This document shows positions 1-4,820 of a stretch of 4,820 nt of DNA, in pieces. The stretch comes from a virus (taxonomy: Duplodnaviria; Heunggongvirae; Uroviricota; Caudoviricetes). The first letter of the stretch is position 1. Every line of letters begins with the position of its first letter. The notes under the pieces were generated by a model. The model ran no database searches, was not told where the DNA came from, and worked only from the letters and a program-made list of their open reading frames with translations. The translations under genes and the position numbers were made by a program. The DNA is taken from the IMG/VR virus record IMGVR_UViG_2713896781_000019; one strand, 5' to 3'.

Positions 1-62
1 ACGATGATCTGGCAGCCTGAGTTCACAGATAAAACACTCTCCAGGAAAACCGGGGCGGTTCA
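1..62 (+). mobile_element. Right terminus of an IS3-family insertion sequence (IS629/IS1203-like), partial; the element continues beyond the window start
   Basis: Reverse complement of 38..62 reads TGAACCGCCCCGGTTTTCCTGGAGA, matching my recollection of the IS629 terminal inverted repeat (TG...CA ends typical of the IS3 family). Similarity to lambda O ends abruptly at position 63. Not verified by search. Confidence 0.7.
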
Positions 63-66
63 CTAA
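1..66 (+). CDS. C-terminal fragment of an IS3-family transposase (OrfB), 5' partial
   Basis: Frame 1 reads TMIWQPEFTDKTLSRKTGAVH then stop TAA at 64..66, running into the terminal inverted repeat as is common for IS3-family orfB. Assignment is from memory of IS629-like transposase C-termini. Confidence 0.45.
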   Translation, partial: TMIWQPEFTDKTLSRKTGAVH

Positions 67-289
67 GTTGAGAATCGGTGATTCTGTCCATTGGTTTATT
101 CCACCCATAGGTTTTACGCAGAATGGCAAGCAGCACTTTAAACTGTCGCTTGGTCAGATCTGCGCCTGAATAAGCCTCAAGCAGCATATTTGATAGTCTG
201 GCGTAACCATCATCGAGATCTGCCACATTACGCTCCTGTCCGGCAAAGTTACCTCTGCCGAAGTTGAGTATTTTTGCTGTATTTGTCAT
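63..289 (-). pseudogene. O: Lambda-type replication initiator O, truncated after codon 77 by the IS insertion
   Basis: Minus-strand ATG at 287..289. Translation MTNTAKILNFGRGNFAGQERNVADLDDGYARLSNMLLEAYSGADLTKRQFKVLLAILRKTYGWNKPMDRITDSQLSE matches lambda O N-terminus as I recall it. The remaining 11 codons of the 88-aa track ORF are read from IS DNA. The ori iterons and the P-interaction domain are absent. Confidence 0.85.
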
Positions 290-292
290 AAT
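264..292 (+). promoter_or_regulatory. pO promoter for oop RNA (-35 TTGAGT 264..269, 17-nt spacer, -10 CATAAT 287..292)
   Basis: Sigma70-like hexamers with 17-bp spacing on the plus strand, overlapping the O start codon, in the position of lambda pO. Confidence 0.5.
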
Positions 293-298
293 GACTCC

Positions 299-376
299 TG
301 TTGATAGTTCCAGTAATAACCTCAGAATTCCATCTGGATTTGTTCAGAACGCTCGGTTGCCGCCGGGCGTTTTTTA
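299..376 (+). ncRNA. oop: oop-like antisense RNA, complementary to the 3' end of cII mRNA
   Basis: About 77 nt between the pO -10 element and the to terminator, antisense to the cII 3' end, as in lambda. The 5' end is inferred, not mapped. Confidence 0.55.
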
Positions 377-615
377 TTGGTGAGAATCGAAGCAACTTGT
401 CGTGCCAATCGAGCCATGTCGTCGTCGACGACACCCCATTCAAGAACAGCAAGCAGCATTGAGAACTTTGGAATCCAATCCCTCTTCCACCTGCTGATCT
501 GCGACTTATCAACTCCCACAGCTTCCGCTGTCTTCTCAGTTCCAAGCATTGCGATTTTGTTAAGCAACGCACTCTCGATTCGTAGAGCCTCGTTGCGTTT
601 GTTTGCACGAACCAT
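322..615 (-). CDS. cII: Transcriptional activator CII (97 aa)
   Basis: Minus-strand ATG at 613..615, stop at 322..324. Translation MVRANKRNEALRIESALLNKIAMLGTEKTAEAVGVDKSQISRWKRDWIPKFSMLLAVLEWGVVDDDMARLARQVASILTNKKRPAATERSEQIQMEF is essentially lambda CII. The 117-aa track ORF is an upstream in-frame extension. Confidence 0.93.
   Translation of the reverse strand: MVRANKRNEALRIESALLNKIAMLGTEKTAEAVGVDKSQISRWKRDWIPKFSMLLAVLEWGVVDDDMARLARQVASILTNKKRPAATERSEQIQMEF
348..376 (+). terminator. Intrinsic terminator (to of oop)
   Basis: Stem AACGCTCGG (348..356) / CCGGGCGTT (363..371) with one mismatch, loop TTGCCG, followed by a T-run at 372..376. Confidence 0.7.
593..606 (+). promoter_or_regulatory. 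CII-binding site of pRE (TTGC-N6-TTGC flanking the -35 region), directing antisense-cro/cI establishment transcription
   Basis: TTGCGTTTGTTTGC on the plus strand, overlapping the first cII codons on the opposite strand, as in lambda pRE. Confidence 0.65.
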
Positions 616-694
616 ATGTAAGTATTTCCTTAGATAACAATTGATTGAATGTATGCAAATAAATGCATACACCATAGGTGTGGTTTATTTTGAT

Positions 695-726
695 GCCCTT
701 TTTCAGGGCTGGGATGTGTAAGAGCG
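695..726 (-). promoter_or_regulatory. nutR N-utilisation site (boxB 695..709, boxA 718..726)
   Basis: Minus strand reads boxA CGCTCTTAC and boxB hairpin GCCCTGAAAAAGGGC, the lambda nutR motifs, between cro and cII. The tR1/rut region would lie at about 616..694. Confidence 0.85.
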
Positions 727-734
727 GGAATGTC

Positions 735-2087
<1,353 letters not shown>

Positions 2088-2137
2088 TCCCCACCTCAAT
2101 CTCGATAACAAAAAAACAAACTATTTTCCGTTTAAAA

Positions 2138-2206
2138 ACAATGGAGTTTGTTTTTCACGTCCCTTTTTTACAATATTTCTTGTTTACAACATACAATCTT
2201 CCTTGT
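2138..2206. promoter_or_regulatory. Left operator OL3 (2138..2151), OL2 (2170..2183), OL1 (2193..2206)
   Basis: ACAATGGAGTTTGT, ACAATATTTCTTGT, ACAATCTTCCTTGT: three more 14-bp ACAA-N6-TTGT sites matching the 434 operator family. Confidence 0.85.
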
Positions 2207-2219
2207 AATTTTAAGCCAT
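2183..2219 (+). promoter_or_regulatory. pL early leftward promoter (-35 TTTACA 2183..2188, -10 TAATTT 2206..2211, start near 2218)
   Basis: Sigma70-like hexamers with 17-bp spacing overlapping OL1/OL2. The downstream leader ATCAGCAGGACGCACTGACCACC matches the lambda pL transcript start region from memory. Confidence 0.55.
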
Positions 2220-2251
2220 CAGCAGGACGCACTGACCACCATTGAAGGTGA

Positions 2252-2282
2252 GGCTCTTAAAAATTAAGCCCTGAAGAAGGGC
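2252..2282 (+). promoter_or_regulatory. nutL N-utilisation site (boxA-like GGCTCTTAA 2252..2260, boxB GCCCTGAAGAAGGGC 2268..2282)
   Basis: The boxB hairpin is identical to lambda nutL boxB. The boxA-like nonamer differs at its first base from CGCTCTTAA as I recall it. Confidence 0.85.
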
Positions 2283-2439
2283 AGCATTCAAAGCAGAAGG
2301 CTTTGGTGTGTGTGATACGAAACGAAGCATTGGCCGGAAGTGCGAATCCGGATTAGCTGCCAATGTGCCATTGCGGGGTGTTTTCGTTCAGGACTACGAC
2401 TCCCACACACAACCAAAGCTAACTGACAGGAGAATCCAG

Positions 2440-2763
2440 ATGGATGCACAAACACGCCGCCGCGAACGTCGCGCAGAGAAACAGGCTCAATGGAAAGCAG
2501 CAAATCCCCTGTTGGTTGGGGTAAGCGCTAAACCAGTTAACCGCCCTATTCTCTCGCTGAATCGCAAACCGAAATCACGAGTAGAAAGCGCACTGAATCC
2601 GATAGACCTTACGGTGCTGGCTGAATACCACGAACAGATTGAAAGCAACCTGCAACGTATTGAGCGCAAGAATCATCGAGTTTGGTATAGCAAGCCAGGT
2701 GAGTTCGGTATAACTTGTCAAGGAAGACAAAAGGTTAAAGGGGAATCCATTCCATTGGCATGA
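2440..2763 (+). CDS. N: Antitermination protein N (107 aa), lambda type with substitutions in the C-terminal half
   Basis: Translation MDAQTRRRERRAEKQAQWKAANPLLVGVSAKPVNRPILSLNRKPKSRVESALNPIDLTVLAEYHEQIESNLQRIERKNHRVWYSKPGEFGITCQGRQKVKGESIPLA. The arginine-rich boxB-binding motif is identical to lambda N as recalled. The track ORF start at 2308 is an in-frame upstream extension across nutL. Confidence 0.92.
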   Translation: MDAQTRRRERRAEKQAQWKAANPLLVGVSAKPVNRPILSLNRKPKSRVESALNPIDLTVLAEYHEQIESNLQRIERKNHRVWYSKPGEFGITCQGRQKVKGESIPLA

Positions 2764-2771
2764 GGTACGTA

Positions 2772-3641
2772 ATGAAGAAGATTGATTACAAGTCCATACC
2801 AAAACCAATAGACTCAGCATCAGAGCGAAAAAAACACAAAAAAGAGGCTGAAAAATTAGCAAATTATATCAGTTTTATTAGAAACAATGCTCACGGCGAT
2901 GGCGACAAGAAGTTGCTTTCAGATGCTCGGACCCAAGCGTTCGGTATACTTCGTAAGCAGATGCAATATCGTCTTCATCCTGGCTACATAATTGAAATTC
3001 GCCCTACTGAAAGACAATTGTTCTTATTAAACTCTGTCTTTGACTTTGTAAACGTAGTTGGAGATCTTATCGACAGGTCTGTAGATAAGGATCCTGATAC
3101 AAATAGTTTTCTTCTAACAAATAAAGAATACTTATATGGTAAATTCGGTATAAACGGATGGCAAAAATATGTACGCTTCTTACGTGCATTCGTTGATGCG
3201 TATAAAAATTCCGACATGATTTATACATATTTGCCTGGTGGTGATAATTGTACGCTTTCGGCAGACAATAGAATATTCATACCTGTACTTGGTCTTGGGC
3301 TGATTAATGCAGTAAATGAAAAAGATGTTATAATTGTTAAGCAGTGGCGAAAATATGAGGGATATAGATATCTGCCATGCTTTGATATATTAAAAATACA
3401 GAATAAATTCTATGTAAAAATTAAATATAAAGAAGATATTTTCTTCCTCAGAAAAAACAAAGATCTTTTACAAGAACTTTCTGGTACAATAGATGTCATC
3501 TTAGGTTCTAGGTTTATAAAAGAACTGAAAGAAAGCAGGTCTTTCTCTCGTGTAGAGATAAGCGAGTCAGAGTTATGGGGTATATCAAATAATCCTGTAA
3601 ACCACGCTCACCAACGAAACCCAAACAAAAAGTGGTCATAA
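2772..3641 (+). CDS. Hypothetical protein (289 aa from ATG 2772, or 293 aa from ATG 2760), strongly AT-rich, no recognisable domain; candidate accessory (moron) gene
   Basis: Long ORF with GAGG Shine-Dalgarno at 2763..2766 overlapping the N stop codon, ATG at 2772; the alternative ATG at 2760 overlaps the N stop as ATGA. GC is about 22-35% in sampled 60-nt lines versus about 50% in flanking phage DNA. The protein is Lys/Ile/Asn/Tyr/Phe-rich with no transmembrane segment, Walker A, HExxH or other motif I can recognise. Confidence 0.75.
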   Translation: MKKIDYKSIPKPIDSASERKKHKKEAEKLANYISFIRNNAHGDGDKKLLSDARTQAFGILRKQMQYRLHPGYIIEIRPTERQLFLLNSVFDFVNVVGDLIDRSVDKDPDTNSFLLTNKEYLYGKFGINGWQKYVRFLRAFVDAYKNSDMIYTYLPGGDNCTLSADNRIFIPVLGLGLINAVNEKDVIIVKQWRKYEGYRYLPCFDILKIQNKFYVKIKYKEDIFFLRKNKDLLQELSGTIDVILGSRFIKELKESRSFSRVEISESELWGISNNPVNHAHQRNPNKKWS

Positions 3642-3642
3642 C

Positions 3643-3664
3643 CCGCTCAGGCGGATTTCATTTT
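3643..3664 (+). terminator. Possible weak intrinsic terminator just after the AT-rich gene
   Basis: Short GC stem CCGC/GCGG with 4-nt loop followed by ATTTCATTTT. The stem is only 4 bp. Confidence 0.3.
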
Positions 3665-3693
3665 CACGCAAACAACAGAATAAACACAGCGCT

Positions 3694-3721
3694 GTGTATT
3701 CATTCCAACGAGTGAATACAC
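3694..3721. repeat. Perfect 9-bp inverted repeat GTGTATTCA-N10-TGAATACAC
   Basis: Arms at 3694..3702 and 3713..3721 are exact reverse complements, with no following T-run. Candidate protein-binding palindrome or RNA stem-loop. Confidence 0.6.
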
Positions 3722-3783
3722 GGAGCAATGTCGCTCGTAACTAAACAGGAGCCGACTTGTTCTGATTATTGGAAATCTTCTTT

Positions 3784-3809
3784 GCCCTCCAAGATGAGGG
3801 CGATTTTTT
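3784..3809 (+). terminator. Intrinsic terminator (GCCCTC-loop-GAGGGC plus T6)
   Basis: 6-bp GC-rich stem (3784..3789 / 3796..3801), 6-nt loop, then GATTTTTTAT. Lies about 20 nt upstream of the next ORF's ribosome-binding site, positionally like a tL1-type terminator readable by N-modified polymerase. Confidence 0.65.
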
Positions 3810-3829
3810 ATCTGTGAGGATATGAACAG

Positions 3830-4057
3830 ATGTCAAACATCAAAAAATACATCATTGATTACGACTGGAAAGCATCAATAGAAATTGAAATCGACCATGA
3901 CGTAATGACAGAGGAAAAACTTCACCAGATTAATAATTTCTGGTCAGACTCTGAATACCGACTCAATAAACACGGCTCTGTATTAAATGCTGTATTAATC
4001 ATGCTGGCGCAACATGCTCTGCTTATAGCAATTTCAAGCGACTTAAATGCATGGTAA
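3830..4057 (+). pseudogene. Hypothetical gene interrupted by IS1; only the N-terminal 74 codons are native, the last sense codon and the stop are supplied by IS1
   Basis: ATG at 3830 preceded by GAGGA (3816..3820). The ORF runs straight into the IS1 inverted repeat, which begins at 4053; TAA at 4055..4057 lies inside IS1. Low GC (about 36%). No recognisable homology. Confidence 0.55.
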
Positions 4058-4067
4058 TGACTCCAAC

Positions 4068-4571
4068 TTATTGATAGTGTTTTATGTTCAGATAATGCCC
4101 GATGACTTTGTCATGCAGCTCCACCGATTTTGAGAACGACAGCGACTTCCGTCCCAGCCGTGCCAGGTGCTGCCTCAGATTCAGGTTATGCCGCTCAATT
4201 CGCTGCGTATATCGCTTGCTGATTACGTGCAGCTTTCCCTTCAGGCGGGATTCATACAGCGGCCAGCCATCCGTCATCCATATCACCACGTCAAAGGGTG
4301 ACAGCAGGCTCATAAGACGCCCCAGCGTCGCCATAGTGCGTTCACCGAATACGTGCGCAACAACCATCTTCCGGAGCCTGTCATACGCGTAAAACAGCCA
4401 GCGCTGGCGCGATTTAGCCCCGACATAGCCCCACTGTTCGTCCATTTCCGCGCAGACGATGACGTCACTGCCCTGCTGTATGCGCGAGGTTACCGACTGC
4501 GGCCTGAGTTTTTTAAATGGCGGAAAATCGTGTTGAGGCCAACGCCCATAATGCGGGCGGTTGCCCGGCAT
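4068..4571 (-). CDS. insB: IS1 InsB reading frame (expressed as InsAB' transposase by -1 frameshift)
   Basis: 167-aa ORF with ...[21 protein letters not shown]...[15 protein letters not shown]..., typical IS1 InsB. It overlaps the insA 3' end in the -1 frame, with the slippery run TTTAAAAAAC on the minus strand. Confidence 0.88.
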
Positions 4572-4765
4572 CCAACGCCATTCATGGCCATATCAATGAT
4601 TTTCTGGTGCGTACCGGGTTGAGAAGCGGTGTAAGTGAACTGCAGTTGCCATGTTTTACGGCAGTGAGAGCAGAGATAGCGCTGATGTCCGGCAGTGCTT
4701 TTGCCGTTACGCACCACCCCGTCAGTAGCTGAACAGGAGGGACAGCTGATAGAAACAGAAGCCAC
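4490..4765 (-). CDS. insA: IS1 InsA (91 aa)
   Basis: Translation [91 protein letters not shown], with zinc-finger and HTH regions typical of IS1 InsA; GTG start. Confidence 0.92.
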
Positions 4766-4820
4766 TGGAGCACCTCAAAAACACCATCATACACTAAATC
4801 AGTAAGTTGGCAGCATCACC

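Follow-up and report, generated by a model that had tools for sequence, protein, structure and literature searches.

Probable disruption of replication gene O by a simple IS629 insertion in a phage-434-type prophage of Escherichia coli

The window, by which we mean the whole stretch of 4,820 nucleotides analysed here (IMG/VR record IMGVR_UViG_2713896781_000019), represents the early/immunity region of a lambdoid prophage of the phage-434 type and has an insertion sequence at each edge. We consider it very probable that the replication gene O of this prophage was split by a simple IS629 insertion, with replication presumably lost as a result, and that the prophage as a whole has been worn down by insertion sequences. 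In the proposed mechanism, an active-looking IS629/IS1203-type element of 1310 bp would have transposed into O at about codon 75/76 of a phage-434-type lambdoid prophage residing at the lambda attachment site of E. coli, and its insertion would have duplicated TAG and deleted nothing. O would have been divided into an N-terminal stub of 88 aa and a promoterless 3' part, 1.3 kb away, holding the iterons and the P-binding domain. On induction, ori-dependent replication would be predicted to fail, no full-length O being present. The locus would thus represent a large prophage disabled stepwise by insertion sequences and not a remnant pared to an immunity cassette.

Early and immunity region

Between positions 63 and 4052 the window aligns with phage 434 (OL657226) in one uninterrupted block at 99.9% identity. 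Lambda (J02459) matches the conserved parts, and its alignment breaks at window base 63, which corresponds to J02459 position 38912. Feature positions were transferred from the OL657226 annotation, followed by a base-by-base comparison with phage 434 (Table 1). Over the 3990 bases compared, only three differences were found, all non-coding and all in the oL region: an additional T at 2160, between OL3 and OL2; a T/C difference at 2164, in a spacer; and C for A at 2179, which is position 10 of OL2 and leaves ACAA-N6-TTGT intact. Many natural prophages, recovered in a search of complete E. coli genomes, are 100% identical to the window over 63..4052, and the oL differences are therefore a natural allele rather than damage. 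A search of papers for the operator 14-mers, made to settle the published 434 OL2 allele, returned nothing relevant.

The immunity is of the 434 type: the CI and Cro proteins are 100% identical to those of phage 434, and six operators of the ACAA-N6-TTGT type were located, the 14-mers of OR1, OR2 and OR3 reading ACAAACTTTCTTGT, ACAATGTATCTTGT and ACAGTTTTTCTTGT, respectively, in the window. The original prediction that cII, cro, cI, OR1-3, OL1-3, nutL/nutR, N, pRE and oop are all intact is borne out at the level of sequence, the three non-coding differences from phage 434 being the only ones. The 434 repressor/operator system is undamaged, as are N and the nut sites, and immunity and early regulation are therefore predicted to function.

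A prophage in the E. coli strains C7 and C3 shares this 434 immunity region; there, an IS629 copy (L001 3627-4936) lies between cII and cro, adjoining nutR, with a GTT duplication. O is intact in both strains.

Table 1. Features of the 4,820-nucleotide window
Feature	Position	Strand	Basis and remarks
Right end of IS629/IS1203-type IS3-family element	1..62	+	Inverted repeat and end of orfB
O' fragment	23..289	-	O nt 1-227 fused to 11 IS-encoded codons and a stop; 88 aa
Target-site duplication, one copy	63..65		CTA on the + strand, i.e., TAG in the sense of O (O nt 225-227)
pO promoter-like site	264-292		Promoter-like match
oop RNA with terminator	289..375	+	434 annotation; zero sequence difference
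Terminator-like match for oop	346-373		
cII	322..615	-	434 annotation; 100% identical
pRE -35 hexamer and CII binding site	593-606		434 annotation
nutR	695..726	-	boxB 695-709, boxA 719-726; gccctttttcagggc read directly; 434 annotation
cro, 434 type	735..950	-	ORF list, 434 annotation and comparison
OR region, with pR and pRM	964..1022		OR1 964-977, OR2 986-999, OR3 1009-1022; 434 annotation
cI, 434 type	1054..1686	+	HTH and S24 peptidase; 100% identical to 434 cI
hex-like "repressor protection protein" gene, 3' of cI	1683..2087	+	434 annotation
OL region	2138..2206		OL3 2138-2151, OL2 2170-2183, OL1 2193-2206; 434 annotation
nutL boxB	2267..2283	+	Sequence and 434 annotation
N antiterminator	2440..2763	+	434 annotation
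289-aa gene	2772..3641	+	"Nun C-terminal peptide-containing protein" in 434; 434 annotation
ea10 (DUF2528), cut by IS1 after base 4052	3830..4057	+	75-aa product
IS1, complete, 768 bp	4053..4820	-	L003 5470-6237, 100% identical

Junction between O and IS629

The first 62 bases of the window share 98.4% identity with the right ends of annotated IS3-family (IS629/IS1203) copies in two E. coli genomes, and positions 1..130, junction included, are 100% identical to E. coli O157:H7 F8798, in which PGAP annotates an "IS3-like element IS1203 family transposase" beside an incomplete "replication protein". The IS match originally proposed for positions 1..62 is confirmed by this identity of 98-100% to annotated IS3/IS1203 copies. 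Base 62 is the last base of the IS tip (...CGGGGCGGTTCA); the element has terminal inverted repeats beginning TGAACCGCCCCGG, and positions 50-62 are the reverse complement of the tip. The transposase of the element reads on the + strand, opposite to O.

Window positions 63..289 (minus strand) correspond to O nt 1-227, and the junction splits codon 76 between its second and third bases. O' is identical to 434 O up to residue 77, and protein similarity runs through codon 77 because the first IS-encoded residues (S and E) happen to equal O residues 76 and 77. The earlier observation that similarity to lambda O stops after codon 77, at an IS629-like end, agrees with this structure, in which the breakpoint is at 62/63 and the reading frame extends 11 codons into the IS. 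O' holds an incomplete N-terminal origin-binding domain: its residues 22-77 match positions 2-57 of the 95 positions of the Pfam profile Phage_rep_O (PF04492), so that ∼60% of the domain is kept and ∼40% is missing. O with the IS removed in silico matches profile positions 2-95.

The element and O beyond the window

The exact 88-aa O' and the exact 75-aa truncated Ea10 were looked up in public assemblies. Both are encoded on a 1-Mb contig of GCA_900450275.1 (L003 and L006 in the coordinates given here), which differs from the window by one base, and both recur on L004, a 4.4-kb GCA_000948465.1 contig that has one of the two IS copies at each end and is identical to the window over 1..4179. The identity to GCA_000948465.1 and the one-base difference from GCA_900450275.1 imply that several closely related isolates carry the prophage. 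The differing base, at window position 3002 (C in the window and A in GCA_900450275.1), lies inside the 289-aa gene with the Nun-like C-terminus.

In IMG/VR, the exact junction pattern was found on one contig only, which at 4408 bp is like L004 and may be a copy of it; there were no matches to the pattern in GTDB species representatives and none in metagenome contigs. The truncated Ea10 occurs on five public contigs, four of which are short (2-5 kb). When the whole window was compared with complete E. coli genomes, the best coverage was 84%, and none of these genomes therefore has both IS junctions of the window. A plasmid origin of the window was considered and rejected, as plasmids match only the IS parts or a related Sf6-like region.

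Several lines of evidence from the GCA_900450275.1 contig favor a simple insertion. First, the element, of which the window holds 62 bp, is complete on this contig (L003 10228-11537) and has the size and gene content of the IS3 family: it is 1310 bp long and carries orfA (108 aa) and orfB (296 aa), both open and in different frames, with a programmed frameshift marked by PGAP in homologous copies. Its identity to annotated copies in other genomes is 94.4-97.6%. Second, TAG stands at each side of the IS in L003, a target duplication within the 3-4 bp range. The far end of the IS and the 3-bp duplication that the original prediction had anticipated were recovered in this way, as a full 1310-bp copy flanked by TAG/TAG. 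Third, the uninterrupted target site in O of other prophages reads CTCAACTTAGCGAGATT (L001), and removal of the IS together with one TAG gives an open O frame, in which an in-frame linker deletion of 6 aa is the only departure from 434 O. This linker deletion relative to 434 O (18 bp, IQSGSK) lies between the N- and C-terminal parts, within L003 about 11540-12195.

The original prediction also held that O had lost its ori iterons and its P-interacting domain. This part has to be withdrawn, because all four iterons and the C-terminal domain are found directly behind the IS: the iterons are at L003 11662-11746, ∼125 bp behind the element, and the C-terminus of O is identical to that of 434 O. 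The sole start of its own in the 3' part of O is an internal ATG, from which 198 aa are encoded. To the right of O, the contig continues with P, ren, ninB, dam, ninF, ninG, a phosphatase gene, Q and a nanS-p-like gene.

Further insertion sequences and the attachment site

At the other edge of the window, IS1 is a simple insertion in ea10 flanked by a 9-bp duplication, ATGCATTTA; IS1 transposase domains were found with Pfam, and the last base of the window is the outer end of IS1. Past IS1, the order is cIII, kil, gam, bet, exo, small b-region genes, a second IS629, xis, int and attL. The attL core, GCTTTTTTATACTAA, adjoins host genes with pectinesterase and aconitase domains, which we take to be ybhC and ybhJ of the K-12 map, on the gal side of att-lambda. 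The second IS629 (L003 143-1452, equivalent to L006 15009-16318) is 99.85% identical to the copy in O and lies 8.8 kb from it in direct orientation; it has its own ATT duplication and breaks a membrane-protein frame in the b-region.

There are at least four IS copies in ∼24 kb of prophage, namely, two of IS629, IS1 and one of the IS110 family. The prophage was read to ∼10 kb right of O, the late structural half lying beyond that range. Since it retains the genes from P to Q to the right of O and those from cIII to int, with attL, past IS1, its structure is not that of a deleted remnant. The claim that the locus had been reduced to an immunity and early-gene cassette consequently does not stand: the earlier reading treated the window edge as though the phage ended there, whereas both insertion sequences are simple insertions with no deletion at either, and phage genes continue on both sides.

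Two further observations concern these copies. The nanS-p-like late-region gene (DUF1737; L003 19635-20267) runs into the IS110-family transposase, which is the fourth IS. The two IS629 copies flank the whole immunity-red region, and homologous recombination between them could delete it.

Functional consequences and alternative explanations

A replication defect is likely because no intact O can be made, and loss of O and of replication is, as a reasonable inference from the sequence, the likely consequence of the insertion. In lambda genetics, O-defective prophages (Oam or O-) stay immune and cannot replicate from ori lambda after induction. Transcription from pR with N antitermination would be expected to pass through the IS, so that P, the nin genes and Q would still be expressed. 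The defect in O could be reversed by excision of the IS, or bypassed if a second resident lambdoid prophage of matching O/ori specificity provided O in trans. IEE-promoted excision of IS629 restores interrupted genes in some STEC (PMC9397093, PMC9943667).

These possibilities underlie the alternative that survives best, according to which the prophage is disrupted without being functionally dead and phage is still produced, through either rare IS excision or the O of a co-resident prophage. It overlaps the best explanation and does not exclude it. The clean 3-bp duplication and the intact transposase frames argue for it, as do the documented IEE-dependent excision of IS629 restoring lacZ (PMC9397093) and the frequent presence in E. 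coli genomes of several copies of this O type, at up to four places per genome. The prophage has, however, at least three further IS insertions, one of them in the late region, which lower the odds of a viable phage, and we consider continued phage production unlikely.

We think it very improbable that the two direct IS629 copies have turned the immunity-red region into a composite transposon that moves as a unit. A full direct IS629 pair does bracket exo-bet-gam-kil-cIII-ea10::IS1-N-cI-cro-cII-O', but such a unit would have one shared outer duplication, and the duplications found are separate (TAG/TAG and ATT/ATT) and the flanking DNA is collinear with phage 434/lambda. As each IS629 has its own duplication, the two copies are separate in situ insertions, and the pair never transposed as a unit; the composite transposon was rejected on this ground.

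Hardly any credence is left for IS insertion with an adjacent deletion that removed the rest of O, ori and the region beyond, so that a selected immunity cassette remains. Such an event would account for the window, within which O similarity stops at an IS and the other edge is also an IS, and IS-adjacent deletion is real in O145:H28 RM12761, in which only the last 69 bp of O follow IS629. It is refuted for GCA_900450275.1, in which both IS copies have matching duplications and the C-terminus of O, P to Q and cIII to attL are present.

Least credible of all is that the junction arose during assembly, from sequences wrongly joined at a repeated IS; such a misassembly had been named as what would overturn a truncated O. 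Although IS copies are classic misjoin places at which short-read assemblies break, and L004 is bounded by both IS, misassembly is effectively ruled out by the identical junction in the 1-Mb contig and in the independent draft GCA_000948465.1 and by a clean, perfect 3-bp TAG duplication around a full-length IS whose removal restores the open O frame.

Recurrent insertion of IS629 in O

The simple insertion that very probably split O in this prophage has counterparts elsewhere. At O nt 225-227 (TAG; window 63-65), an IS629/IS1203-type element occurs in several unrelated E. coli prophages, amounting to at least six contexts distinguished by immunity region, isoform or orientation. The orientation is that of the window in O157:H7 F8798 and AR-0430, in Z1323HEC0393 and in O80:H26 EC-107, and it is the opposite in O157:H7 F6294 (with TAG on both sides) and in O145:H28 RM12761 and RM13516. 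The prophages with an element at this site vary in their CII, Cro and CI proteins, and the divergence among their IS isoforms is 4-5%. A second site, O nt 349-351, comprises the first three bases of ori iteron 1 (L014 2563, L018 2567); strain 2571 of O157:H7 and strain 2020N21-246 carry the element there in opposed orientations. Additional IS629 insertions were found at O nt 552, at O nt 587 and immediately behind iteron 4; the O/ori segment seems to be a repeated target. Of 5426 genomes, about 1331 have this O segment without an interruption.

The IS isoform tracks the host genome, possibly through gene conversion between IS copies, and the strict minimum is therefore two events per site, one per orientation. 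The different immunity contexts suggest more than two independent events. A rough argument, rather than a formal test, indicates that insertions spread evenly over a 900-bp gene would hardly ever strike one nucleotide several times. When targets at six sites were compared with the IS ends, no resemblance exceeded that of shuffled sequences, and a DNA hairpin at the intact site folded no better than shuffles (z = 0.45). No paper that connects IS629 with "replication protein O" was found in a literature search. Similarities among IS629 targets were reportedly discussed by Ooka et al. in 2009. Rump et al. (2011) reported that they had found no sequence hot spot for IS629 (PMC3271280).

We put the chances at about even that IS629-family elements have nucleotide-precise insertion hot spots in lambdoid O/ori, at TAG 225-227 and at 349-351. 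If the pattern reflects target choice by the transposase (e.g., of DNA structure in the origin region) and not common descent, IS629 would act as a recurrent, semi-specific agent that inactivates prophage replication. This would, if true, constitute a defined route of prophage domestication and contradict the statement that there is no hot spot (PMC3271280). Confirmation would establish a defined target preference of IS629 and a simple way in which hosts repeatedly immobilise lambdoid prophages, including those of the Stx type.

Significance

The O::IS629 insertion is an ordinary, well-known kind of IS insertion in a well-known phage gene. In E. coli, prophage genes are routinely knocked out by IS629 and IS1, and RefSeq genomes already carry annotation of an identical O::IS junction. 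The value of the analysis lies in a correction: neither ori nor the remainder of the phage has been lost, so the locus is not to be taken for a selected "immunity cassette". The possible hot spot for IS629 in O is the sole part that could matter more.

Comparison with known systems

The element resembles the IS629/IS1203 copies of lambdoid prophages in EHEC and other E. coli, with which it shares the TGAACCGCCCCGG termini, the length of 1310 bp, the orfA/orfB organization and a 3-bp duplication. In O157, 62% of IS629 copies lie in prophages, and duplications are of 3-4 bp (PMC3271280); the location of the present copy fits this reported prophage bias. PGAP annotation shows an identical O::IS junction in O157:H7 F8798 and AR-0430, O80:H26 EC-107 and Z1323HEC0393, but the IS629 isoform here is only 94.4-97.6% identical to the copies in that group.

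Compared with phage 434, all proteins of the early region are identical and the operators, nut sites, pRE and oop are all kept. Unlike in phage 434, O is broken by IS629, ea10 is broken by IS1, and there are the three small differences in oL.

Lambda Oam and O- prophages are alike in having lost the initiator while keeping immunity. In contrast to O- mutants and cryptic prophages, the defect here is a clean and potentially reversible IS insertion. DLP12, Rac and Qin are deleted remnants, whereas the prophage described here keeps most of the parts seen so far. The prophage of O145:H28 RM12761 and RM13516 shares this 434 immunity region, and an IS629-type element lies at the identical nucleotide of its O gene; there, however, the IS has the opposite orientation, O beyond it has been deleted to the last 69 bp, and the iterons are truly lost.
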